Source: Candidatus Nomurabacteria bacterium (GTDB lineage: Bacteria; Patescibacteriota; Minisyncoccia; Phycocordibacterales; UBA918). Taken from it: a stretch of DNA of 64,000 nt. The notes under the pieces are model-generated. The model did no database searches. It saw nothing but the letters and a program-made list of their open reading frames with translations, and had not been told where the DNA came from. Positions 973 through 57,126 of the stretch are shown here, piece after piece. The first letter of the stretch is position 1. Each line of letters begins with the position of its first letter. The stretch lies in contig JACKGJ010000001.1 in assembly GCA_020631995.1 (NCBI GenBank), positions 97,753 to 161,752 on the forward strand. Direction: 5' to 3'. The translations under genes were made by a program, and so were the position numbers.

Positions 973-1845
973 TTAGCCAATCGCCTTCCTGGCTGCTTCC
1001 AAAGCCCCTTCCTTACTCCTCGCCACGAAAAGAAAACCTGCCTTGTGACAAAATACTGCGTCAGACACGTCTGACACTTTCGCTAATTCCTCGTCGCGCA
1101 AACCACCCCACTCTGCCGGAAATTTAACTCTGGTTTCGAACGAATCGTGACTCTTACGAACCATTGCCGCTGACCACCTATCTCCTTCTTCACTAGGATA
1201 AACTGCCACAAAAACTTCAGGATAATCAATCAGGTGAAAAGTTGAAACGGATTTATCAAAAATTAACACTTGTTTATTAATGGCTTCTGTATAAATCGAC
1301 TCTACATATTGTTTTTGGGCAATATCACCTTTAGTTTGCAAGATAGCTCTCAAAATAGTATCTCGAGCAAAAGCACAGGCTTCGGTAAATCCGATATCGT
1401 CATCAGCAATACTTCCCCAGACTGGACGCCAAAGTGACATTAAATCTTGCAGAGTAATTGGCGCAATATTTTTGTCATTAAGGTCATAGAGAGAGATACC
1501 AACATCATTAGCATCTATAGGTAGTACAAAGCGTCTTTCAATATCAGCTGCGGCCTCTGGACTCCCCGCCACCTGTTCACCATAGTGTTTCCAAATCAAA
1601 CCAAATGCAGCATAAGGAATTCCATTGTCCCGGACTGGGGCGCCATTTTGGTGATGATCAAAACGTTGTTTCTCTGCATCATAAACTCCTCCCACATCGA
1701 CTACAATGTCACCTGAGGCGATTATTTCCTCATCACGAGTTCGTATTACCTCAACATTTTCGACCCCAAAATGTAGTTGCAGGGTGGCGACTGCAAATAT
1801 ATCGTCAGAATGAAAACTACCACTATGAGTTATGATCTTTTGCAT
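973..1845 (-). CDS. MYG1/UPF0160 family metal-dependent hydrolase
   Basis: 290 aa; N-terminus MQKIITHSGSFHSDDIFAVATL matches the MYG1 GSFHxDE motif; DHHQ motif present. Confidence 0.8.
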   Translation of the reverse strand: MQKIITHSGSFHSDDIFAVATLQLHFGVENVEVIRTRDEEIIASGDIVVDVGGVYDAEKQRFDHHQNGAPVRDNGIPYAAFGLIWKHYGEQVAGSPEAAADIERRFVLPIDANDVGISLYDLNDKNIAPITLQDLMSLWRPVWGSIADDDIGFTEACAFARDTILRAILQTKGDIAQKQYVESIYTEAINKQVLIFDKSVSTFHLIDYPEVFVAVYPSEEGDRWSAAMVRKSHDSFETRVKFPAEWGGLRDEELAKVSDVSDAVFCHKAGFLFVARSKEGALEAARKAIG

Positions 1846-7075: not shown

Positions 7076-7290
7076 CAGAATAAAATAACCCTGCCTACGC
7101 AGGGTTATTTTATTCTGTGCTTGGGGAGGAAGCCAAAGGCTTGGCTTCCGTGCAGGCTCGAAGCGCCGCAGGATGTTTTTGTGAGCCTGTCCTAGCAAAC
7201 AAAAACCCGATGCGCCGACCAGGAAAGCGAGCTTATTTTGTAAATGTAATGATACAAAATAACCGCTATTCCGGGTCGAGTCTGCTCAAT
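7067..7290. repeat. tRNA-Phe-linked composite element (28-bp perfect palindrome, antisense copy of tRNA 3' half, extra hairpins)
   Basis: 7067-7094 pairs perfectly with 7099-7126, and the left arm includes the last 9 nt of the tRNA. 7152-7162 is the exact reverse complement of T-arm nt 7056-7066, separated by a 25-nt inserted hairpin. Hairpin TTATTTTGTA/TACAAAATAA at 7233-7262. Confidence 0.7.
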
Positions 7291-7306
7291 GATTAAAACT
7301 AGATTC

Positions 7307-12559: not shown

Positions 12560-15031
12560 CTATTGGTCCGTTTCGTTAATTTCAGTTGCAGTGTTATCAG
12601 ATGGTACCGGATTTGGTGAAGTGACCAAACCGCTTTGAAGATCACTTTCAGTCACTGGACCGTCTTCTGGGTCACGCTCGGGCACAACTTCACCTTCGGT
12701 TAGAGATTGTGAGAGTGAACCATTTTCTCGTAACTGTGTAATTAGATCATCAACAACGGTATTTGATTCATTTAACCCACGAACCACCATCAACTGCTCA
12801 ATTGCCGCTTCAACCTTACCTTGCTCAGCATAACCAAGAGCTAAGAAATATCGTGCATTCGCATATTGTGGATCTAGTAGCACTGCCTGTTCAAAAGCAG
12901 TAACTGCCTCATTTAGTTGATTGTTGGAAGCTAATAAAACTCCTAATTGATATCGGCGTGCAGGATTTTGTGGTTCTAATTGAGCAATACCATTCACAAT
13001 AACAATCGCTCGCTCAACATTTCCATCATTAATATCAAGCTGAGCTAGGAAGAACAGTGCCTCAGTGAAGTTACCTTTCTTGCGTACTGCCTCTTCTGCA
13101 CCAACTCGAGCCAAGGCTGTATCACCAGAAGATATTGCTAAATCAGCTTCTAACAAATCAAGAATCGGATTTTGAGGGTCATATGTTTTTGCTGTAGCAA
13201 ATGACTCACGCGCCCTATCTCCCGCACCCTCAAGACCAATCAGTGATAAGACCGAGTAAACTTGTCCAGCTAATTGATGATTGAAAGGATCAGTCGGGTC
13301 AAGTGTGATAGCTGTGTTGGCAGCTTCGATTGCTCTAGATGCTGATTCCTGGAAGATTTGTTGTTCAGTAGCACTTGGTTCGGAGACACCAAGGATCGTG
13401 CGCATTCTGGATAGGTTGTGGAAAGCAATCTGTTGAGCAAAAACATCATTAGCAGAGATATTAAATGCCCCTACGATCTTATCGTTCAGAGAATCTACAG
13501 TATCCCCTTCTGCAACCGTACCCATTGCATGATTAAACTTATATACTGCCAGCATCTCAGTAGCTCCTGCGTAAGCGACATAACCAGTAGCAGAAACTGC
13601 ACTAACTGCTAACACAATAAGAACGATGCCGTAAGCTTTTCCTTTGGAAGCATTAATAACAATCGAGCGGACTGGCATTAATCTGAGGTAGGAAGCCAAG
13701 AAAATACCTGTGGTAATAGCACCAAGCAATAAAATACTTGGTGGTGGAACATATACCAGACTCATTACTAATAGATACACACTAGAAGTTAATGACGATA
13801 GACCAATGAAGTGCCAGAATTGATCAGTTGTCGGAGCTCTCATAACGAAGCGAGAACCACTCCAAATTAGTCCTCCTATAAATATTAAGTAGGCAATAAC
13901 ACCAGCCAAACCAGTACCGATTATTGATGTTGCAACATAACTAAAGCCGGAATCAAATGGGGTGTTCCAAAATATAGTTTGGTTAATAGCTTGGTCCTTA
14001 TGAACTCGCCACACATCTACAAAACGATTGGGACCGGCGCCTAGGAGTAAATTATCTTCATACACAGCGCGGGTAATATCCACCGTCGCACTCATTGATG
14101 GTCTTACTTCAAGGAAGGATATATTCAACTTTTCACCAATCATTGCTCCTAGAGTATTCCCACCCAAAATGAATATAACTGCCATTACAAAGATCACAAC
14201 AGCAGAAATTAATATATCGAATGAATCCTTTTGATCGTCACGTCCATCCTTTTTCCAGATATGGCGCACCAGGTGATACAAACCGATTACTCCACTAACG
14301 ATCGCCAAGACCCACCAAGCTGGTACGAAATTTATAACTGCAAGCATCAAGAGAGACAAAACCATCACACCCATTGCAATATTGCGTCCAGTGCGACTAA
14401 GTGGCAGTTGTTGAAGAGCCATTAAAACCAAAAGTACAATTAGTCCATACAAGATAGCTAAACCATTCCAACTACCTACTAGCGAAGATGTTGGACTATT
14501 GAATACAGAAAATGACAACACTTCTGGGCCAAATATGATTCTAATGATATGAAAGAGTGATAACACGATCGCAGAAAAAATCAGTACGCCATACAAGCGA
14601 ATCACCATTTGCTTACTATGATGAAACGAAGCAGTCACCGTTACTATCAATGCAACCAAGAAAGCGAAGTAAGCAGTGTAACTATCAAGTCCGTTCCCAA
14701 AAAGGGCGTCTCGAGTATCACCAGAAAGTAAGGCTGAAACGAAGGTTACAACTGCAATACTCCATACACCTAATAAAATTGGAGAGAAACGCAAATTTAG
14801 ACTACCTTCACGCAACATTGCCATCACGATGAACAACATTGCTAACACAACAGCTAAAGTAATCAACAATACTTTACCTCCAGAAAAAGGAACAAAAGTT
14901 GAGGGGATAAATAAGATTGGTAATAGTCCCCCAACAGCTACCAAAATAACCTGAGCAATAGCGAGTAATTTTTCAGCTAACTTATCCTTGGTGGAAGTGG
15001 CAGAAGCAGGGTGAAACATTGGTAAATCCAT
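12560..15031 (-). CDS. large polytopic membrane protein with C-terminal TPR repeats (O-antigen-ligase/Wzy-like topology suspected)
   Basis: 823 aa; about 450 aa of TM helices, then TPR-like repeats (DPQNP..., EPQNPARRYQLGVLLASNNQLNEAVTAFEQAVLLDPQYANARYFLALGYAEQG). Confidence 0.6.
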   Translation of the reverse strand: MDLPMFHPASATSTKDKLAEKLLAIAQVILVAVGGLLPILFIPSTFVPFSGGKVLLITLAVVLAMLFIVMAMLREGSLNLRFSPILLGVWSIAVVTFVSALLSGDTRDALFGNGLDSYTAYFAFLVALIVTVTASFHHSKQMVIRLYGVLIFSAIVLSLFHIIRIIFGPEVLSFSVFNSPTSSLVGSWNGLAILYGLIVLLVLMALQQLPLSRTGRNIAMGVMVLSLLMLAVINFVPAWWVLAIVSGVIGLYHLVRHIWKKDGRDDQKDSFDILISAVVIFVMAVIFILGGNTLGAMIGEKLNISFLEVRPSMSATVDITRAVYEDNLLLGAGPNRFVDVWRVHKDQAINQTIFWNTPFDSGFSYVATSIIGTGLAGVIAYLIFIGGLIWSGSRFVMRAPTTDQFWHFIGLSSLTSSVYLLVMSLVYVPPPSILLLGAITTGIFLASYLRLMPVRSIVINASKGKAYGIVLIVLAVSAVSATGYVAYAGATEMLAVYKFNHAMGTVAEGDTVDSLNDKIVGAFNISANDVFAQQIAFHNLSRMRTILGVSEPSATEQQIFQESASRAIEAANTAITLDPTDPFNHQLAGQVYSVLSLIGLEGAGDRARESFATAKTYDPQNPILDLLEADLAISSGDTALARVGAEEAVRKKGNFTEALFFLAQLDINDGNVERAIVIVNGIAQLEPQNPARRYQLGVLLASNNQLNEAVTAFEQAVLLDPQYANARYFLALGYAEQGKVEAAIEQLMVVRGLNESNTVVDDLITQLRENGSLSQSLTEGEVVPERDPEDGPVTESDLQSGLVTSPNPVPSDNTATEINETDQ

Positions 15032-15087
15032 AAACGTTGTAGGTAAACTAAATTATTAAACTTTAATAAGCTAATTTTAACACAACA

Positions 15088-15110
15088 CAAAACCCCCTTG
15101 CGGGGGTTTT
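15088..15110 (-). terminator. terminator of rnpB
   Basis: AAAACCCCCGCAAGGGGGTTTTGTG on the minus strand. Confidence 0.75.
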
Positions 15111-15506
15111 GGTGTTCATAAGCCGGATTCTGTGCCGTCACAGGCAAGCCTGTGACGGCGATGGTCATATACCTGGGATGAATGTTGCCATCCACCTCTT
15201 GCGGCTCTCAACTCTAGAAACAAAAGCATCTAGAGAAGCACGGCCTTGCATACGGGTAGGAATTTTGCCGTTTCACCTGACTGTTTCCAGCCAACTAACC
15301 CTTACGGGTCTCTTTGCCTCTCAGCGCAGACGTCTCTGCTCGCATCCCTCTCAAGTACAACACATAAATGCTATGCGCTTGAGCGACGGGTGTTACCCGC
15401 TACCTGTTTACGACCGAAGTCGTGTATGTCCGGACTTTCCTCCCCCCATCACTTTTAAGTATGTTACAAAAACCTACGCAAAAGTGATGGGGGGCGACCA
15501 TCGAAC
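15111..15506 (-). ncRNA. rnpB: RNase P RNA, bacterial type A
   Basis: Minus strand contains GGAGGAAAGTCCGGAC (CR-I) and ACAGAATCCGGCTTATGAAC (CR-V/P4) at the expected spacing. TATAAT box at 15513-15518. Track ORFs 15109-15531 and 15246-15458 are artefacts of this RNA. Confidence 0.9.
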
Positions 15507-15512
15507 TTTAAT

Positions 15513-15518
15513 ATTATA
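15513..15518 (-). promoter_or_regulatory. -10 box (TATAAT) of rnpB
   Basis: Minus-strand read CAATTGTATAATATTAAAGTTCG. Confidence 0.5.
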
Positions 15519-15532
15519 CAATTGTTTTTAAT

Positions 15533-16033
15533 TTAACGCAAATCTGACGGCAACTTATTTTCTGGAATAGTAACCTTATCACCCACATTTATATTGAAAG
15601 TGGAGGTAAAGAAAGCATTCACCTCCACCACAAAGCGTGCAGGCACAGGAGAATAATACGTAGCGGGGTATGATTCAGGCCGCACATTTCTTTCTATATG
15701 GACTATTTTCTGGTTGTTATTTATCCAAATAATATCTAGTGAGATTAATGTGTCTTTCATCCAAAATCCGTGTCTCCCCTCCTTTTCAAAGACAAAAAGC
15801 ATACCTTCGTTTTCAGGTAGCGCACTCACTCCAGACAGTCCCTTCTCTCGTTCTTCTGGTGTAACTACTGTAGTTACCAGAACTGGCACATCACGTAAAA
15901 AGACTGATGACTTTTGTACTCCATATAAATAATTAAGCACAGGACCACTGTAGTTTTGGTGCAAAAAAAACACGACACCAAAAATTGTCAGGATAATGAT
16001 CACATCTATTAAAATGCGGAGAATGGAAGACAC
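15533..16033 (-). CDS. DUF192 family protein
   Basis: 166 aa; signal anchor, then GLSGVSALPENEGMLFVFEKEGRHGFWMKDTLISLDIIWI... typical of DUF192/COG1430. Confidence 0.75.
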   Translation of the reverse strand: MSSILRILIDVIIILTIFGVVFFLHQNYSGPVLNYLYGVQKSSVFLRDVPVLVTTVVTPEEREKGLSGVSALPENEGMLFVFEKEGRHGFWMKDTLISLDIIWINNNQKIVHIERNVRPESYPATYYSPVPARFVVEVNAFFTSTFNINVGDKVTIPENKLPSDLR

Positions 16034-16128
16034 GAGTTCATACTAGCACTTTCAAGTCATTCAAATGTGTGACGCTTGAAATATTTGGGGATATATGGTA
16101 TGGTGTGCGCAAGCTTTTGATACTTGTG

Positions 16129-16342
16129 TGGTGTGAGAAAGCTTACAGTGCTTTCGCAAGACCTTTTGAGATATTTTGTAATTCCGAGCTTGTCGAGGAA
16201 GAAACAAAATATACAAAAGGTGTACCGCATCCGTAGGATGAGGAAGCCTGGGAGGCTTTCGCAAGACCTTGCCTGACAATTTATGAGGCGTATAAGCCTC
16301 TATCAATAAATGTCGATAAGGTGTACAGCGACTGTAAGTCGC
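16129..16342 (-). repeat. two tandem copies of the family 1 hairpin core (not tRNA-linked)
   Basis: Minus-strand reads CATCC-TAC-GGATG-C-GGTACACC + long hairpin ACCTTTTGTATATTTTGT/ACAAAATATCTCAAAAGGT + GGTCTTGCGAAAGC..., and GCGAC-TTACA-GTCGC-T-GTACACC + ACCTTATCGACATTTAT/ATAAATTGTCAGGCAAGGT + GGTCTTGCGAAAGC... Confidence 0.65.
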
Positions 16343-16483
16343 AACTACCTCAAGTTTCACCTAATATTACTATCCGCACACCCCTACAGCTACTTTACAT
16401 ACTATTAGAAGAGCGCTTGACGGCGCGATGAAAAGTGACGAGGGTAAACAAGGAGCGCAAGATGCGCTTCTAAAATTAAAATA

Positions 16484-17764
16484 ATGCAAACAAAATATTC
16501 CCGACCAGCCAGAAGTGGCGGTCGCCGTCCGTTTTCGGGTGGTGGCGCAACACGTTCAAGTGGAGGAGCATCACGACGTTTTTCAAGTGGAGGACGCTCT
16601 CAAGGTGGTTCTCGTTATCCATCTCGCGGTGGAGGTGGTGGAGGTGGACGTCGTAAGACCCCAACCTTTGACCCATCAAAATTTATAAATACTAATCCCC
16701 AGTCAGAAACTGAGGAAGTATACGAAGCAAAGAACCGTTTTTCCACTTTTGGTTTAAACGACCGCTTTGCTCGTGCCATCGTTGCCAACGGACTAGAAAT
16801 ACCTTCTCCAATTCAGGACCAGGTTATTCCACTTATTCTTGATGGTCACGATGTTATCGGACTAGCTGAAACTGGTACTGGTAAGACTGCTGCTTTCTTG
16901 GTTCCTTTGATTGAAAAGACTCTGCGTGATTATTCACGTCAGACTCTAATTTTAGCTCCAACTCGTGAACTTGCTATCCAGATTGAAGCTGAGCTTCGTA
17001 AGTTGGCTAGTAAAGAACGTATCTACTCAACAGTATGTGTTGGTGGTACCAGTATGCACCCACAAGTGCGCGCACTTCGTCGAAAAAACCATTTCGTTAT
17101 CGGTACTCCAGGGCGTGTCTTGGACCTAATCGAAAGAGGTTATATTAAGACCGAGAGCTTCAGTGCTGTCGTTCTTGATGAAGCTGACCGTATGCTTGAT
17201 ATGGGATTCATTACCGACATTCGTGAAATCTTAAAATCAATTCCAAAAGAACGTGACACCCTCTTCTTCTCTGCCACCATCACTGATGATGCTAAGAAGT
17301 TGGTTAACGACTTTATGAAGGACCCGAAGACTGTTTCAGTAAAGAAAAAGGATGTTATCAATAGCATCAAGCAAGATGTGGTCACTCACGGACATCATAA
17401 TAAGTTCGAAACACTAGCTAACCTTTTGAAACAACCAGAATTTGCTCGTGTAATTATCTTCGGAGCAATGAAACACAGTGTTGAAAAGCTGGCTAATGAA
17501 CTTACTGCCGCTGGAATCAAATCAGAATCGATTCACGGCAACAAGAGCCATCCACAACGACAACGTGCTTTAACCTCTTTCAAGAGTGGTCGGGTACAAG
17601 TATTGGTAGCGACAGACGTAGCTGCTCGTGGTATCCACGTCGACAACGTCACTCACGTTATAAACTACGATTTACCTAATACTTTTGAAGATTACGTACA
17701 CCGTATCGGTCGTACTGGTCGTGGCTCTAAGCGAGGTATCGCTCTCACTTTCGTAGCCGGTTAA
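16484..17764 (+). CDS. DEAD-box ATP-dependent RNA helicase with N-terminal Arg/Gly/Ser-rich tail
   Basis: AETGTGKT, VLDEADRMLDMGF, SAT, HRIGRTGR motifs; the first ~60 aa are RGG/RSS repeats. Confidence 0.9.
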   Translation: MQTKYSRPARSGGRRPFSGGGATRSSGGASRRFSSGGRSQGGSRYPSRGGGGGGGRRKTPTFDPSKFINTNPQSETEEVYEAKNRFSTFGLNDRFARAIVANGLEIPSPIQDQVIPLILDGHDVIGLAETGTGKTAAFLVPLIEKTLRDYSRQTLILAPTRELAIQIEAELRKLASKERIYSTVCVGGTSMHPQVRALRRKNHFVIGTPGRVLDLIERGYIKTESFSAVVLDEADRMLDMGFITDIREILKSIPKERDTLFFSATITDDAKKLVNDFMKDPKTVSVKKKDVINSIKQDVVTHGHHNKFETLANLLKQPEFARVIIFGAMKHSVEKLANELTAAGIKSESIHGNKSHPQRQRALTSFKSGRVQVLVATDVAARGIHVDNVTHVINYDLPNTFEDYVHRIGRTGRGSKRGIALTFVAG

Positions 17765-22272: not shown

Positions 22273-22506
22273 TTATAGCAGTCCTTCGAGACTAGCAGTA
22301 TAACTTCTAATGAAAGCTGGAATGATAAACAATAGTGCAATAAGTGGTAGTACCACCATTGCAATAGTTACCCACATAGTTATTTGAAAGTAGCGTCGAG
22401 TTTTTTCAACTGATACATACACTGCATCAATTTTCGTTTCGAGCTCTGAAAGCTTACTTTGAATATTTGGTTCCATATACTTAAGTATAGCAAGCTTCAC
22501 AGACAC
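22273..22506 (-). CDS. hypothetical small membrane protein
   Basis: 77 aa, one TM helix. Confidence 0.45.
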   Translation of the reverse strand: MSVKLAILKYMEPNIQSKLSELETKIDAVYVSVEKTRRYFQITMWVTIAMVVLPLIALLFIIPAFIRSYTASLEGLL

Positions 22507-22763
22507 CTATCTGCTTTATTAGCTCCATATTTTATTAAAATGAGTTTGTCTTCTTTCTTCCAGCTTTTAATTTCAGCTTCACGTTTTAAAGCCAGGGAAC
22601 GACTTGAGTGTTCCTCTGTATAGACGAACTTAACCACCTTCCTCGCACGAGTATAGTGGCCTCCTTTTCCATTTTTATGTGCCTCAAAACGACGCTCGAG
22701 ATTATTAGTAATGCCGGTATATAAGGACCCATCACCGCACAGAAGAATATATACAAAATACAC
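22497..22763 (-). CDS. GIY-YIG nuclease superfamily protein (UPF0213-like)
   Basis: YFVYILLCGDGSLYTGITNNLERRFEAHKNG GIY-YIG motif. Confidence 0.85.
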   Translation of the reverse strand: MYFVYILLCGDGSLYTGITNNLERRFEAHKNGKGGHYTRARKVVKFVYTEEHSSRSLALKREAEIKSWKKEDKLILIKYGANKADRCL

Positions 22764-28830: not shown

Positions 28831-29076
28831 AAAAGCAAAACTGTTTGCTTTTCACCGCTTGGCTACGGCATCGCTCCGGTCTTCAAGTCCCTATACCAGC
28901 AAAGCAGTTGTTTGTGAGGGGACTTGAAACTTACAGTTTCAGTACACCTTTTCGATATTCCCCTTCACAAGTTCTGGGAATATCTGAAAAGGTCTTCAAG
29001 TCCCACAAGACAGTTCCCCGAACTGTCTTTTTCGCTCACACAAAATAAAAGCCCCCATTAGGGGGCTTTTATTTTG
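28831..29076 (+). repeat. tRNA-Asp-linked composite element (family 1 core plus copies of the tRNA-Asp T-arm/acceptor 3' half)
   Basis: GAAACT-TAC-AGTTTC hairpin, GTACACC, long hairpin ACCTTTTCGATATTCCCC/GGGAATATCTGAAAAGGT. Then TTCAAGTCCC, a 26-nt hairpin and TTCGCTCACACAAAATA, which together are the reverse complement of tRNA-Asp nt ~29071-29096. Extra GGGACTTGAA/TTCAAGTCCC copies at 28882-28926. Confidence 0.7.
29044..29076. terminator. bidirectional terminator next to the tRNA-Asp 3' end
   Basis: AAATAAAAGCCCCCATTAGGGGGCTTTTATTTTG. Confidence 0.75.
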
Positions 29077-29221: not shown

Positions 29222-29384
29222 AATTTGTGTCGACGGGAGGGATGAAGCTTACAGCTTCCGTACACCTTTTCGATATTTCCTTTCATTACTTCAGGAAATA
29301 TCTGAAAAGGTCATCATTCTCTCCCGCGCACAAAATCACTCTTGCGCAAAGCTCCATGCATTCGCTTTACGCTCGGTGTTTTTG
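29222..29384 (+). repeat. tRNA-Met-linked composite element (family 1 core plus direct and inverted copies of the tRNA 3' half)
   Basis: 19-nt exact direct repeat TTTGTGTCGACGGGAGGGA at 29224-29242 and 29381-29399 (the latter inside the tRNA). GAAGCT-TAC-AGCTTC hairpin, GTACACC, 17-bp hairpin, then inverted copy TCATCATTCTCTCCCGCGCACAAAAT at 29311-29336. Confidence 0.7.
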
Positions 29385-29540: not shown

Positions 29541-29872
29541 TTGCGGGGCCTGGAATTGAACCAGGGTCTGGAGGTTCTGTTATTCGCTCACTTTCATGAG
29601 TGCATGGACTATCCCATATTCCTGGATTAAAATATCCTTAGGAACTCTCCATTATAGTCTCTGAACCTTCCGTCTGCTTTCGCAGAGGGCTTGGCTGCCG
29701 ATTGCCGAATCTTTACTTTTTTAAAGCATTCACACTCACCCTCTCAGGTCATGTTGTAGCAAGCAAAGCTCTAACGGTATTCCAGCAATTTAGAAGATTT
29801 TTCCATACCGCATTACTGCGATAGGTCACAGTTTCCTATGAGCCTCCCGAGGTACCACTCCTCTACCCCGCT
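29541..29872 (-). tRNA. tRNA(CAT) with initiator-like features, interrupted by a group I intron (exons 29872-29838 and 29576-29541)
   Basis: Spliced sequence gives AGCGGGG-TA-GAGG-AGTGGTA-CCTC-G-GGAGG-CTCATAA-CCTCC-AGAC-CCTGG-TTCAATT-CCAGG-CCCCGCA-A. Features: 1:72 mismatch (A:A) and A11:T24. Confidence 0.8.
29577..29837 (-). ncRNA. group I self-splicing intron (261 nt, no ORF) in the anticodon loop after CAU
   Basis: 5' exon ends in U and the intron ends in G. P1 UCAU/GUGA; P2 hairpin AUCGCA-GUAA-UGCGGU. Classical P/Q/R/S elements: AAAUUGCUGGAAU, AAUCGGCAGCC, GGUUCAGAGACUAUAAUGG, GGGAUAGUCC. Confidence 0.8.
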
Positions 29873-29974
29873 GTGTGCTGAAAGATTGTACCACTTACTA
29901 CCTAAAAGTCCAGCATTATCTCTTTGTGTAAGAAGCCTAAAATTTAGACGATTTCGAGGCACGCGAGGAAAATG

Positions 29975-30115
29975 GCACGAGCCGTATATGGACATACGGT
30001 GTGAGAAAGTCTAGGAGACTTTTGCAAGAGGTTGGCAGCTATTCTGACGCAAGGAAGAATAGCGACAACCTAAACAGCTTCTGTAAGAAGTGACATTTTG
30101 TCGAAGCGTAACAAA
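29975..30115 (-). repeat. hybrid repeat: CGTATATGGACATACG hairpin (family 2) plus a divergent family 1 core
   Basis: GTGTGAGAAAGTCTAGGAGACTTTTGCAAGAGG parallels 16129-16160. Hairpin GGTTGGCAGCTATTC/GAATAGCGACAACC replaces P3. CTTC-TGTAA-GAAG replaces P2. Confidence 0.45.
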
Positions 30116-51109: not shown

Positions 51110-51346
51110 TCTAGAATATTACATCCTCCTTGATTCACTGCGTTCATCTGCGGAGGATGTGAGATTCGGTCACTCTTATGGATATTTTGTATTACTTCGC
51201 TCACAAAATATCTCATTCGCTCAACCCCACCTCACTCGCCTCCGGCATCGTTCCGGTTTTCGAATCTCACCGCGAGACACGCAGGTGTCTCGCTCATCCT
51301 CCGCGAATACAAAAAAGTCGCCAAATGGCGCGCTAATTTGTATTCG
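51110..51346 (+). repeat. tRNA-Ser(ACU)-linked composite element
   Basis: 19-nt exact direct repeat GCGGAGGATGTGAGATTCG (51150-51168 vs 51346-51364 in the tRNA). Hairpin GGATATTTTGT/ACAAAATATC. GGCATCGTTCCGGTTTT module. Inverted copy CGAATCTCAC, 25-nt hairpin, ATCCTCCGCGAATACAAA (18-bp perfect with 51337-51354). Confidence 0.7.
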
Positions 51347-51433
51347 CGGAGGATGTGAGATTCGAACTCACGGGCGGTTTTACCCGCCGGCGGTTTAGTA
51401 AACCGCTGGTTTAAACCACTCACCCAATCCTCC
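51347..51433 (-). tRNA. type II tRNA, Ser-like, anticodon reads ACT (unusual)
   Basis: Acceptor GGAGGAT/ATCCTCC, discriminator G, anticodon stem GCGGT/ACCGC with loop TTACTAA, long variable arm GGCGG-GTAAAA-CCGCC, T arm GTGAG-TTCGAAT-CTCAC. Confidence 0.7.
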
Positions 51434-51493: not shown

Positions 51494-51677
51494 ATGGAAA
51501 TTTATTTACATTTCCGAACGAACGCTGAAAGAAAGCTTGCTTACAGAGCAGTACACCTTTTGGATATTTTATTTCACTTTGCTCATAAACTATCTCAAAA
51601 GGTCTTCGAATCCCTCCTTTTCTCGCAGAATATAATCACAAAAAGCTCCGAGCATTCGCTTTTTGTTCTTTATTCTG
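51494..51677 (+). repeat. tRNA-Ser(GCU)-linked composite element
   Basis: GTACACC plus hairpin ACCTTTTGGATATTTTAT/ATAAACTATCTCAAAAGGT. Then TTCGAATCCCTCCTTTTC(t)CGCAGAATA at 51605-51632, a near-perfect reverse complement of tRNA nt 51671-51697. Loop motif AAGCTCCGAGCATTCGCTTT shared with the Met locus. Confidence 0.7.
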
Positions 51678-51764
51678 CGGAAAAGGAGGGATTCGAACCC
51701 TCGAGGGTTTTAACACCCTACCTCCTTAGCAAGGAGGCACATTCGACCACTCTGACACTTTTCC
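51678..51764 (-). tRNA. tRNA-Ser (anticodon GCT)
   Basis: Acceptor GGAAAAG/CTTTTCC, discriminator G, anticodon stem CCTCC/GGAGG with loop TTGCTAA, long variable arm, T arm GAGGG-TTCGAAT-CCCTC. Confidence 0.85.
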
Positions 51765-57024: not shown

Positions 57025-57052
57025 TAACCCTGCGTGGCGTTTAAAAACTCTG

Positions 57053-57126
57053 TCCGCCCTCTTGGATTTGAACCAAGGACCCCAGAGGTATAAGCTCTGT
57101 GCTCTAACCAACTGAGCTAAGGGCGG
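57053..57126 (-). tRNA. tRNA-Ile (anticodon TAT)
   Basis: Acceptor CCGCCCT/AGGGCGG (C1:G72), D arm GCTC-AGTTGGTTA-GAGC, anticodon stem CAGAG/CTCTG with loop CTTATAC, T arm CTTGG-TTCAAAT-CCAAG. Confidence 0.8.

Follow-up and report, generated by a model that had tools for sequence, protein, structure and literature searches.

Organization of the helicase locus

The window analyzed here, a 64-kb stretch of DNA from a Candidatus Nomurabacteria bacterium, contains two tandem copies of a hairpin element (16137-16342) in the spacer upstream of a DEAD-box RNA helicase gene. This spacer (16034-16483) measures 450 nt, as an earlier sequence-only reading of the same DNA had stated, and separates a DUF192 gene (15533-16033, minus strand) from the helicase gene, whose product has a core most closely matching the degradosome helicase CshA. 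Next to DUF192 lies a full-length class A rnpB gene (15103-15513, minus strand). Its score of 82 bits (E = 8e-25) is below the Rfam gathering cut-off of 100, so that a gathering-threshold scan misses it; the spacer itself has no significant similarity to rnpB. The tRNA genes nearest to the pair are about 7-8 kb off. The pair had been described as lying away from any tRNA, which is accurate, but the tight association of the family as a whole with tRNA genes had passed unnoticed.

The two units, A2 and A1 in plus-strand order, share one organization: hairpin X is followed by GCAAGACC and a long hairpin with a bulge (LH), and the junction GGUGUAC then leads to a small hairpin (SH) whose loop is UGUAA or GUA. 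LH is a long near-perfect duplex with a conserved base (ACCUUUUGAG/CCAAAAGGU) and a single bulge; the X hairpin of A2 bears the SH loop motif CUUACAG in reversed orientation. Two adjacent units had been noticed on the minus strand, and the sequences quoted for them can be read directly at the locus. On this strand both units have GTACACC, a hairpin, GGTCTTGCG and another hairpin, in this order. In A1 these parts are preceded by GCGAC-TTACA-GTCGC and T, the first of the two hairpins measures about 57 nt, and the stretch 3' of it is given as GGTCTTGCGAAAGCC; in A2 they are preceded by CATCC-TAC-GGATG and CG, the first hairpin measures about 61 nt, and the corresponding stretch is given as GGTCTTGCGAAAGCA. 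The features of the locus are as follows.

16076-16104, plus strand: sigma-70-like promoter (TTGAAA, 17 nt, TATGGT, with TG extension), a consensus match; predicted start near 16111, at CAAGCUUUUGA
16111-16483, plus strand: predicted 5' leader of the helicase mRNA, about 373 nt, with both units inside
16137-16155, plus strand: hairpin X2 of unit A2, GAAAGC-UUACAGU-GCUUUC
16161-16221, plus strand: long hairpin LH2 of unit A2, ACCUUUUGAG...CAAAAGGU, one G-C pair fewer than in the close strain
16219-16240, plus strand: GGUGUAC junction and small hairpin SH2 of unit A2, GCAUCC-GUA-GGAUG
16242-16260, plus strand: hairpin X1 of unit A1, GGAAGCC-UGGGA-GGCUUUC; the same hairpin occurs in locus L149
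16266-16322, plus strand: long hairpin LH1 of unit A1, orthologue of the L149 hairpin; a copy of LH2 takes its place in L132/L133
16320-16342, plus strand: GGUGUAC junction and small hairpin SH1 of unit A1, GCGAC-UGUAA-GUCGC; identical in L149
16364-16384, plus strand: conserved leader motif AUAUUACUAUCCGCACACCCC; similar motifs lie 3' of the unit in L149, L136 and L161
16452-16470, plus strand: hairpin 14 nt before the start codon; an equivalent hairpin is found in all four lineages, with a different sequence in each
16484-17764, plus strand: DEAD-box RNA helicase gene, with a CshA/RhlE/DbpA-like core and a Gly/Arg-rich N-terminus

A stretch of 231 nt folds far better than shuffled sequence on both strands (z = -5.4 on the plus strand, -5.3 on the minus strand), and the plus strand is the more stable by 8 kcal/mol. 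No intrinsic terminator coincides with X, LH or SH on either strand between 15900 and 16600. An 8-bp inverted repeat (16102-16109 / 16375-16382) brackets the pair; it is not kept in other lineages and could be due to chance.

A hairpin family across the class

An exact-pattern scan (CTTACAG N4-5 GTACACCTTWT) of one genome per species yielded at least 120 loci. Among the pattern matches listed, nearly all belong to Patescibacteria of the Paceibacteria/Parcubacteria type, i.e. Nomura-, Kaiser-, Taylor-, Lloyd-, Zambryski-, Adler- and Azambacteria. The alignment of 80 cores served to construct a covariance model, which matches more than 130 copies in loci fetched from about 100 Patescibacteria genomes (individual loci carry L numbers here). 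The hairpin family is class-wide and not confined to this genome. Pattern matches in Clostridia, Oscillospiraceae and Thermincola were rejected by the model, and so were all six matches in IMG/VR, which we therefore attribute to chance. The element occurs at high copy number, is extragenic and mosaic, and forms tandem and head-to-head arrays in several genomes.

In the window, the model recovers exactly the six copies that had been counted by eye, plus a degenerate seventh. Two of the six form the pair (16150-16245 and 16255-16346, both on the minus strand in the orientation of the model); the remaining ones are listed here.

28922-29004, plus strand (model strand; the tRNA-sense strand is minus): copy B, downstream of tRNA-Asp
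29240-29322, plus strand: copy C, downstream of tRNA-Met and upstream of tRNA-Asp
30018-30095, minus strand: divergent copy F, upstream of the intron-containing tRNA-Met(CAU)
51179-51215: degenerate copy D, downstream of tRNA-Ser(ACU)
51532-51614, plus strand: copy E, downstream of tRNA-Ser(GCU)

All small-hairpin stems reported for these copies were found again (GAAACT/AGTTTC, GAAGCT/AGCTTC, GCGAC/GTCGC, CATCC/GGATG, CTTC/GAAG and a weak stem near tRNA-Ser-GCU). The loop and the junction, which had been taken as fixed, are less uniform: GTACACC is present in A1 and A2, but copy F reads GTTTAGG, and the loop of A2 is a GUA/UAC triloop.

The compensatory variation in the family is statistically real, as had been proposed from the six copies. 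The test comprised 80 aligned sequences, 23 pairs (SH and the lower 18 pairs of LH) and 500 shuffles. Paired cells amount to 90.3% against 74.5% in shuffled alignments, a value that none of the 500 shuffles reached, and changes on both sides of a pair are found in 256 cells against 78. The covariation score is 0.342, with a maximum of 0.129 when partners are slid by 1-3 columns. Each of the three variable SH pairs occurs in four Watson-Crick types, and mismatches are almost never seen.

The element matches no Rfam family: at gathering thresholds, Rfam 15 detects only tRNA, tmRNA and a group I intron in the whole window, a permissive scan of 14500-17000 returned just rnpB and noise from microRNA models (E > 0.07), and a scan of thirteen related loci gave rRNA and tRNA only. 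No similarity to the element was detected by blastn in phage and plasmid collections, and a full-text literature search revealed no description of such an element in Parcubacteria or Patescibacteria. Several known RNA classes were considered and dropped, as their core motifs are absent on direct reading, beside the Rfam scans as the formal test: group I and II introns, retrons, box C/D and H/ACA guides, T-boxes and K-turns.

Linkage to the helicase gene and origin of the pair

Relatives of the helicase were fetched from metagenomes, and their loci were scanned with the covariance model. The element is found upstream of the helicase in five lineages, i.e. the window, L132/L133, L149, L136 and L161/L162. 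The tandem pair is also present in L132/L133, whose helicase protein is 98% identical; L149, L136 and L161/L162 have a single unit, which scores weaker in L161/L162. In the distant lineages the helicase is only about 65-70% identical, and one unit is kept at the same place. Throughout the five lineages the unit lies 100-330 nt upstream of the helicase start and always in the same orientation relative to this gene. DUF192 is the upstream neighbor only in the same species. Because the upstream genes differ in L149, L136 and L161, the element travels with the helicase and not with DUF192/rnpB.

The single unit of L149 is the orthologue of A1, with the same X, an identical SH (GCGACUGUAAGUCGC) and an LH that is almost unchanged. 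The two units share 88% identity; the figure is 69% for the coding sequence of the helicase and 45% for the remainder of the leader. Among all fetched loci, the A1 variant is found upstream of helicase genes only. We conclude that A1 is old and was inherited with the helicase gene; A2, since it is absent from the distant lineages, represents an added, lineage-specific unit. The five leader units have the same three hairpins (X, LH, SH), and double changes preserve pairing in 20 of 32 pairs.

Promoter-like sites at an equal distance from CAAGCTTTTGA are recognizable in L149 (TTGACG-17-TATTTT), L161 (TTGACT-17-TATTTT) and L136 (TTGACA-17-TACTGT). With the window, four lineages thus point to a start near 16111, which would place the pair inside a leader of about 373 nt. 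A further shared feature is an A(U/C)AUUACUA..CACACCCC-like motif (16364-16384 in the window), which lies 3' of the unit in all lineages.

The comparison with the close strain reveals how hairpins of this family can be exchanged. When L132/L133 (2168-2368) is compared with the window (16150-16346), both LHs of L132/L133 are identical over 61 nt, and their flanks are unchanged. A1 of the window keeps the ancestral, L149-type LH; A1 of L132/L133 has an exact copy of the A2 LH. It follows that one LH was overwritten by recombination within the borders GCAAGACC and AAGGUGUAC, and to judge from the sequences this replacement looks like a recent gene conversion or cassette swap. The distal parts of LH had been reported to change in pairs; the covariation is real, but at least some of it came about by replacement of a whole hairpin, as in this 98%-identical strain, and not by stepwise mutation. 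Traces of exchange are seen elsewhere in the family too. Cores B and C are 85% alike despite their different adjoining tRNAs, copies are somewhat more similar within a genome than between genomes (0.61 vs 0.52, p = 0.009), and many variants are common to different species at 90-100% identity.

The strand likely expressed

A comparison of strands by minimum-free-energy folds is possibly biased by base composition, and an orientation-neutral alignment of the LH arms of 103 distinct copies was used in its place. Transition mismatches in the arms are distributed asymmetrically: 34 would be G.U on the strand that matches the plus strand here, 13 on the other (p = 0.003). The plus strand, the sense strand of the helicase, is likely the functional one, because the position of the promoter-like site, the linkage to the helicase, the better folding and the G.U asymmetry all favor it. 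The units had been read on the minus strand, and this orientation is the less probable of the two.

Copies beside tRNA and 5S rRNA genes

Other members of the family are located in tRNA trailers and spacers, beside 5S rRNA genes, and in mRNA leaders and trailers. For the tRNAs within 300 nt of the pattern matches listed, 55 are opposite to the strand on which the family was first read and three are on the same strand, i.e. 55 of 58 are co-oriented with the module strand that is plus at the helicase locus; 46 of these 55 are found on one side at a distance of 100-160 nt. The usual order, in the sense of the tRNA, begins with the tRNA and a terminator-like hairpin. Next come the acceptor 3' strand in inverted copy, a hairpin H1 of the X kind and, again inverted, the T-stem 3' strand with the T-loop; these are followed by AAGACC, LH, GGUGUAC, SH and finally a direct copy of the tRNA, which starts exactly at T54 and stops at the tRNA 3' end.

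These copies were quantified in 49 element-tRNA pairs. The direct copy is present with at most 3 mismatches in 20 in 13 pairs, nine of them perfect (control 0.2%); the inverted T-part with at most 1 mismatch in 11 in 27 pairs (control 1.7%); and the inverted acceptor part with at most 1 mismatch in 8 in 21 pairs (control 6%). The inverted copy is better kept than the direct one. Together with the terminator hairpin between them, the tRNA 3' end and its inverted copy make up a long palindrome, and the space between the tRNA-derived repeats (130-300 nt) contains no open reading frame (ORF). The pair in the helicase leader is devoid of tRNA-derived arms.

Terminators 3' of tRNAs, at 29050-29075 of the window and at other sites, are perfectly symmetric and bidirectional (e.g. 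AAAATAAAAGCCCCCTAATGGGGGCTTTTATTTT). Beyond the terminator the symmetry extends over about 20 nt of the tRNA 3' end and of the corresponding inverted copy, which results in palindromes of about 100 bp.

In some loci, partial tRNA copies are interrupted by the element, either after the D-arm (L015, L035, L039, L075) or in the anticodon arm (L006). L105 (2030-2440, plus strand) contains a disrupted tRNA-Ile(GAU) copy with one unit after the D-arm and a second one in the anticodon loop; the LH of the second unit encloses a complete tRNA-Ile(GAU), and likewise in L072 (about 1390-1590, minus strand). In L069 (312-760, plus strand) and L022 (3660-3970, minus strand), 23S, 5S and a terminator are followed by a second 5S copy without helix I, which is split by the element and a hairpin block (CCGCCTCG..CTCCGGC plus a GGGTCCC-type hairpin). 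In the window, tRNA-Phe (7077-7300, plus strand) has a terminator hairpin and, beyond it, its own inverted 3' end split by a hairpin (GTGCTTGGGG ... GCAGGCTCGAAG). The core of this arrangement is a different hairpin without GTACACC; it is a second family with the same tRNA-end architecture.

The features linked to tRNA and 5S genes are consistent with a history of recombination or mobility, and a simple leader or processing function does not explain them. The tRNA-linked arrangement could represent an attachment site in folded single-strand form, belong to an RNA with one arm complementary to the tRNA, or have arisen as a by-product when palindromes formed.

Search for partner proteins

According to Pfam annotation, the 64-kb window encodes no REP-associated tyrosine transposase (RAYT), IS200/IS605 TnpA, integrase or other transposase. 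The clustering of 540 ORFs within 1.5 kb of copies from about 100 loci uncovered no recurrent protein family, the largest cluster (LepA) being represented in five loci, and neither RAYT nor TnpA was found among these ORFs. The suggestion that RAYT or IS200/IS605 TnpA may act on the hairpins finds no support within this scope, none being present in the window or enriched beside copies in about 100 other genomes.

A structured leader RNA as the favored explanation

For the helicase locus, a plus-strand, cis-acting leader RNA appears to be the best-supported reading of the sequence comparisons. Our proposal in full is that the pair is a structured module in the helicase mRNA leader whose duplex serves as a signal for double-strand-RNA machinery and thereby in feedback on the helicase; we hold it tentatively, at somewhat less than even confidence. 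Both units would be transcribed on the plus strand as part of a 5' leader of about 370 nt, and X, LH and SH would form in this transcript. The LH duplex, with its conserved base and bulge, would be the site of recognition or cleavage by such machinery. Candidates for it are an RNase III-type nuclease and the CshA-like, degradosome-type helicase itself, alone or together. Recognition or cleavage of the duplex would set the stability or translation of the helicase mRNA and thus provide feedback. In stable-RNA transcripts the same duplex may mark processing boundaries, a role suggested by the LHs that enclose a complete tRNA-Ile(GAU) in L072 and L105. Recombination between copies would keep the family uniform and occasionally multiply it. 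The sequence comparisons themselves establish the anatomy, conservation and covariation of the module, its linkage to the helicase gene, the promoter-like site and the exchange of a whole hairpin; its transcription, its action as RNA, the protein that would recognize it and its regulatory effect belong to the proposal. The sequence-only reading had left the choice between a folded RNA and a DNA enzyme; a folded RNA is better supported here by the orthologous leaders and the conservation of A1, and no enzyme was found in the window or near the copies.

Several observations weigh against this proposal. The element is present at only 6 of 66 loci with a helicase homologue, the other 60 having enough upstream sequence and no element, and hence it is not a general feature of the gene. 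The promoter is a consensus match, and two such sites were found where 0.8 are expected by chance. A plain MAFFT alignment gives equal numbers of G.U and A.C (27 each) and is uninformative on the strand. Copy F, the 5S-linked copies and the copies containing tRNA-Ile are oriented in the opposite direction relative to the adjacent RNA gene, which means that a strand-specific RNA function is not universal. The tRNA-end duplications of most copies remain unexplained by a processing-site model. Copies without arms occur in both orientations relative to protein genes and are commoner at the 3' ends of genes than in divergent promoter regions (spacers: convergent 10, tandem 14, divergent 2); a leader role for all of them was ruled out because of this lack of orientation bias. 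Finally, the replacement of a whole hairpin implies that part of the family-wide covariation reflects recombination and not selection on individual pairs. The comparison of orthologous leaders (20 of 32 pairs) provides the cleaner evidence for selection on structure.

Mobile repeats and tRNA-directed elements

According to the main competing model, the element is a selfish palindromic DNA repeat of the REP (repetitive extragenic palindromic)/BIME or MITE (miniature inverted-repeat transposable element) type, its RNA structure is incidental, and the pair is a tandem insertion that happens to lie in the leader. The repeat would be multiplied and moved by a hairpin-recognizing DNA enzyme, either a HUH/RAYT-type transposase or a site-specific recombinase, whose gene lies in another part of the genome. 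Much of the family's behavior agrees with this model: the high copy number, seven in 64 kb, with arrays that are tandem, head-to-head or nested; the modular construction from X, Y, LH and SH; the lineage-specific gain of A2 and the hairpin replaced between close strains; the likeness of cores B and C beside different tRNAs and the greater similarity of copies within genomes; the absence of orientation bias relative to protein genes, with few copies in divergent promoter regions; and the pieces of duplicated tRNA or 5S genes that flank most copies, as insertions would give. Like the REP/BIME elements of Enterobacteria and Pseudomonas, which are mobilized by RAYT, these are short extragenic palindromes of high copy number that form mosaics of modules and tandem or inverted pairs. 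REP elements, too, are often found at gene 3' ends, are transcribed as stable hairpins and have a conserved tetranucleotide beside the hairpin.

The differences are equally specific. REPs are imperfect palindromes, 20-40 nt long, whose 5' foot carries a conserved GTAG, whereas here GUAC(ACC) separates a hairpin of 5 bp from one of more than 20 bp. At about 85-110 nt the units are also larger; they have conserved loops and are maintained class-wide, whereas REPs are conserved at the species or genus level; ordinary REP/BIME elements, which had been named as an alternative, are thereby disfavored as the explanation. Most copies are fused to copies of tRNA 3' ends, no transposase, RAYT or integrase is encoded in the window, no protein family recurs beside the copies in about 100 loci, and the family was not found in phage, plasmid or IMG/VR collections. 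In addition, A1 is more conserved than the adjacent coding sequence, which is unexpected for a neutral parasite. MITEs derived from IS200/IS605 (PATE) have subterminal hairpins at both ends, insert 3' of a fixed target of 4-5 nt without target duplication and depend on TnpA, whereas the flanks of our element are tRNA or 5S copies of 8-35 nt, and TnpA is missing from the window and the vicinity of the copies. Taken as a whole, we consider the selfish-repeat model possible and rather unlikely. The leader-RNA and mobile-repeat views are compatible if a mobile module was co-opted.

It is unlikely, in our estimate, that the tRNA-linked form constitutes a new tRNA-gene-specific system of Patescibacteria, be it mobile or a guide. 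Such a system would consist of a segment of about 20 nt, exactly complementary to the T-loop, T-stem and acceptor 3' strand of the neighboring tRNA, joined to the conserved two-hairpin scaffold. The segment could be the folded single-strand attachment site of a miniature mobile element that enters tRNA or 5S loops with an intact gene copy preserved, or it could be an antisense 'guide' RNA against that particular tRNA or its precursor. In either case the pair in the helicase leader would be a derivative that was domesticated and has no arms.

In its strictly integrative version, this idea holds that the elements are miniature integrative elements targeting tRNA genes and that the stem of tRNA copies is a folded single-strand attachment site mimicking the tRNA gene duplex. 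SH and LH would be accessory, and the units in the helicase leader would have been immobilized and co-opted after loss of their tRNA arms. The order tRNA, terminator, inverted copy, LH, SH, direct copy is what a circle with pairing arms integrated at the T-loop would leave, and the direct copy spans exactly T54 to the tRNA 3' end. Both copies greatly exceed their controls (direct copy in 13 and inverted T-part in 27 of the 49 pairs), the tRNA pseudo-copies are interrupted at the D-arm or anticodon loop with an intact tRNA kept adjacent or inside, and the G.T asymmetry falls on the tRNA-sense strand. CTX phage attP, integron attC and attachment sites at the T-loop or anticodon loop of tRNA genes are comparable: there, too, a direct repeat from T54 to the 3' end arises, the intact tRNA is kept, a partial copy is displaced, and two site copies in inverted orientation can pair to form a stem. 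However, integrative elements of tRNA genes span kilobases and encode a tyrosine or serine integrase, whereas here 130-300 nt offer no coding capacity and no recombinase is linked to the copies, either in the window or in about 100 loci. The direct 3' repeat typical of such elements is restricted to the tRNA-linked subtype (13 of 49) and is missing from the pair under study, which has no tRNA-derived arms. The inverted copy is intact more often than the direct one, which suggests selection on tRNA complementarity rather than an integration scar. Integration as such is hypothetical, and we regard this version as improbable.

That the units are two independent small RNA genes, or a leader of DUF192-rnpB, on the minus strand is very improbable: this strand folds well too (z = -5.3), has a weak promoter-like match (16306-16278, minus strand) and leads to DUF192 and rnpB downstream, but the promoter match sits inside LH1, no terminator follows the units, the element is not accompanied by DUF192 or rnpB in other lineages, and both folding and the G.U asymmetry favor the plus strand.

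Comparison with other structured RNAs and significance

Long structured 5' leaders are known from cold-shock and DEAD-box helicase genes of E. coli, such as deaD/csdA and cspA. The leader proposed here resembles them as a long structured segment between promoter and start codon that is conserved with the gene. This likeness involves no homology in sequence or structure; moreover, the module here is a repeat found dozens of times in the genome.

The RNase III stems of rRNA and tRNA operons are similar in being near-perfect duplexes of about 20-25 bp that can enclose a stable RNA, as LH does with tRNA-Ile in L072 and L105, and in their location in the spacers of stable-RNA transcription units. 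The length of the LH duplex, about two helical turns, fits a processing stem of RNase III, for which LH is thus a candidate. The element differs in that the sequence of its base, its bulge and its adjoining SH are conserved and that it is a dispersed repeat also found near mRNA genes.

Hairpin and double-hairpin elements of mitochondria, e.g. in sponges, likewise invade intergenic regions and stable-RNA genes of very small genomes (PMC2800124). Their hosts and sequences are unrelated, and they are not known to be linked to tRNA 3' ends.

The closest kinds of known systems are REP/BIME mosaics and structured leaders, although the element lacks the short palindrome with a GTAG foot that defines REP and is in no Rfam family. 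A two-hairpin scaffold fused to exact direct and inverted copies of tRNA 3' ends, for most tRNA species and throughout a class, matches no described system that we found.

The genomes of Patescibacteria are among the smallest and most streamlined in bacteria; nevertheless, the 64 kb studied here contain about seven copies of the module. Its sequence and fold are kept class-wide, and it is included in none of the RNA-family, phage and plasmid resources searched. If it is a cis-acting RNA, it would represent a widespread regulatory or processing signal in organisms without experimental RNA biology, and likely a feedback loop on what may be the main DEAD-box helicase of the cell. If the tRNA-linked form is mobile or a tRNA-directed guide, it would be a new way to target tRNA genes or tRNAs.

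Annotation and further features of the window

Copies of the element create pseudo-fragments of tRNA and 5S genes as well as spurious ORFs, which can mislead the annotation of these genomes. Three ORFs of 50-99 codons cross the pair (16061-16360, minus strand; 16069-16236 and 16124-16276, plus strand), the longest without a Pfam match; they are almost certainly repeat artefacts.

Some tRNA genes of the window are unusual in their own right. The tRNA with anticodon CAU near copy F (29543-29893, minus strand; GCGGGGTAGAGGAGTGGTACCTCGGGAGGCTCAT / AA..CCTCCAGACCCTGGTTCAATTCCAGGCCCCGCAAC) has an anticodon loop split by a group I intron (Rfam match 29585-29849, 61 bits), and ARAGORN makes no call for it. 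On the minus strand, ARAGORN predicts tRNA-Ser(ACU) beside tRNA-Ser(GCU) (51346-51433 and 51677-51764) and a tRNA-Ile(UAU) (57052-57126); the anticodons ACU for Ser and UAU for Ile are unusual for bacteria. The two tRNA-Ser genes, each followed by an element of its own, look like a tandem duplication that has since diverged. Elsewhere in the window, at 22497-22763 on the minus strand, a stand-alone ORF of 88 aa encodes a GIY-YIG nuclease domain according to Pfam.

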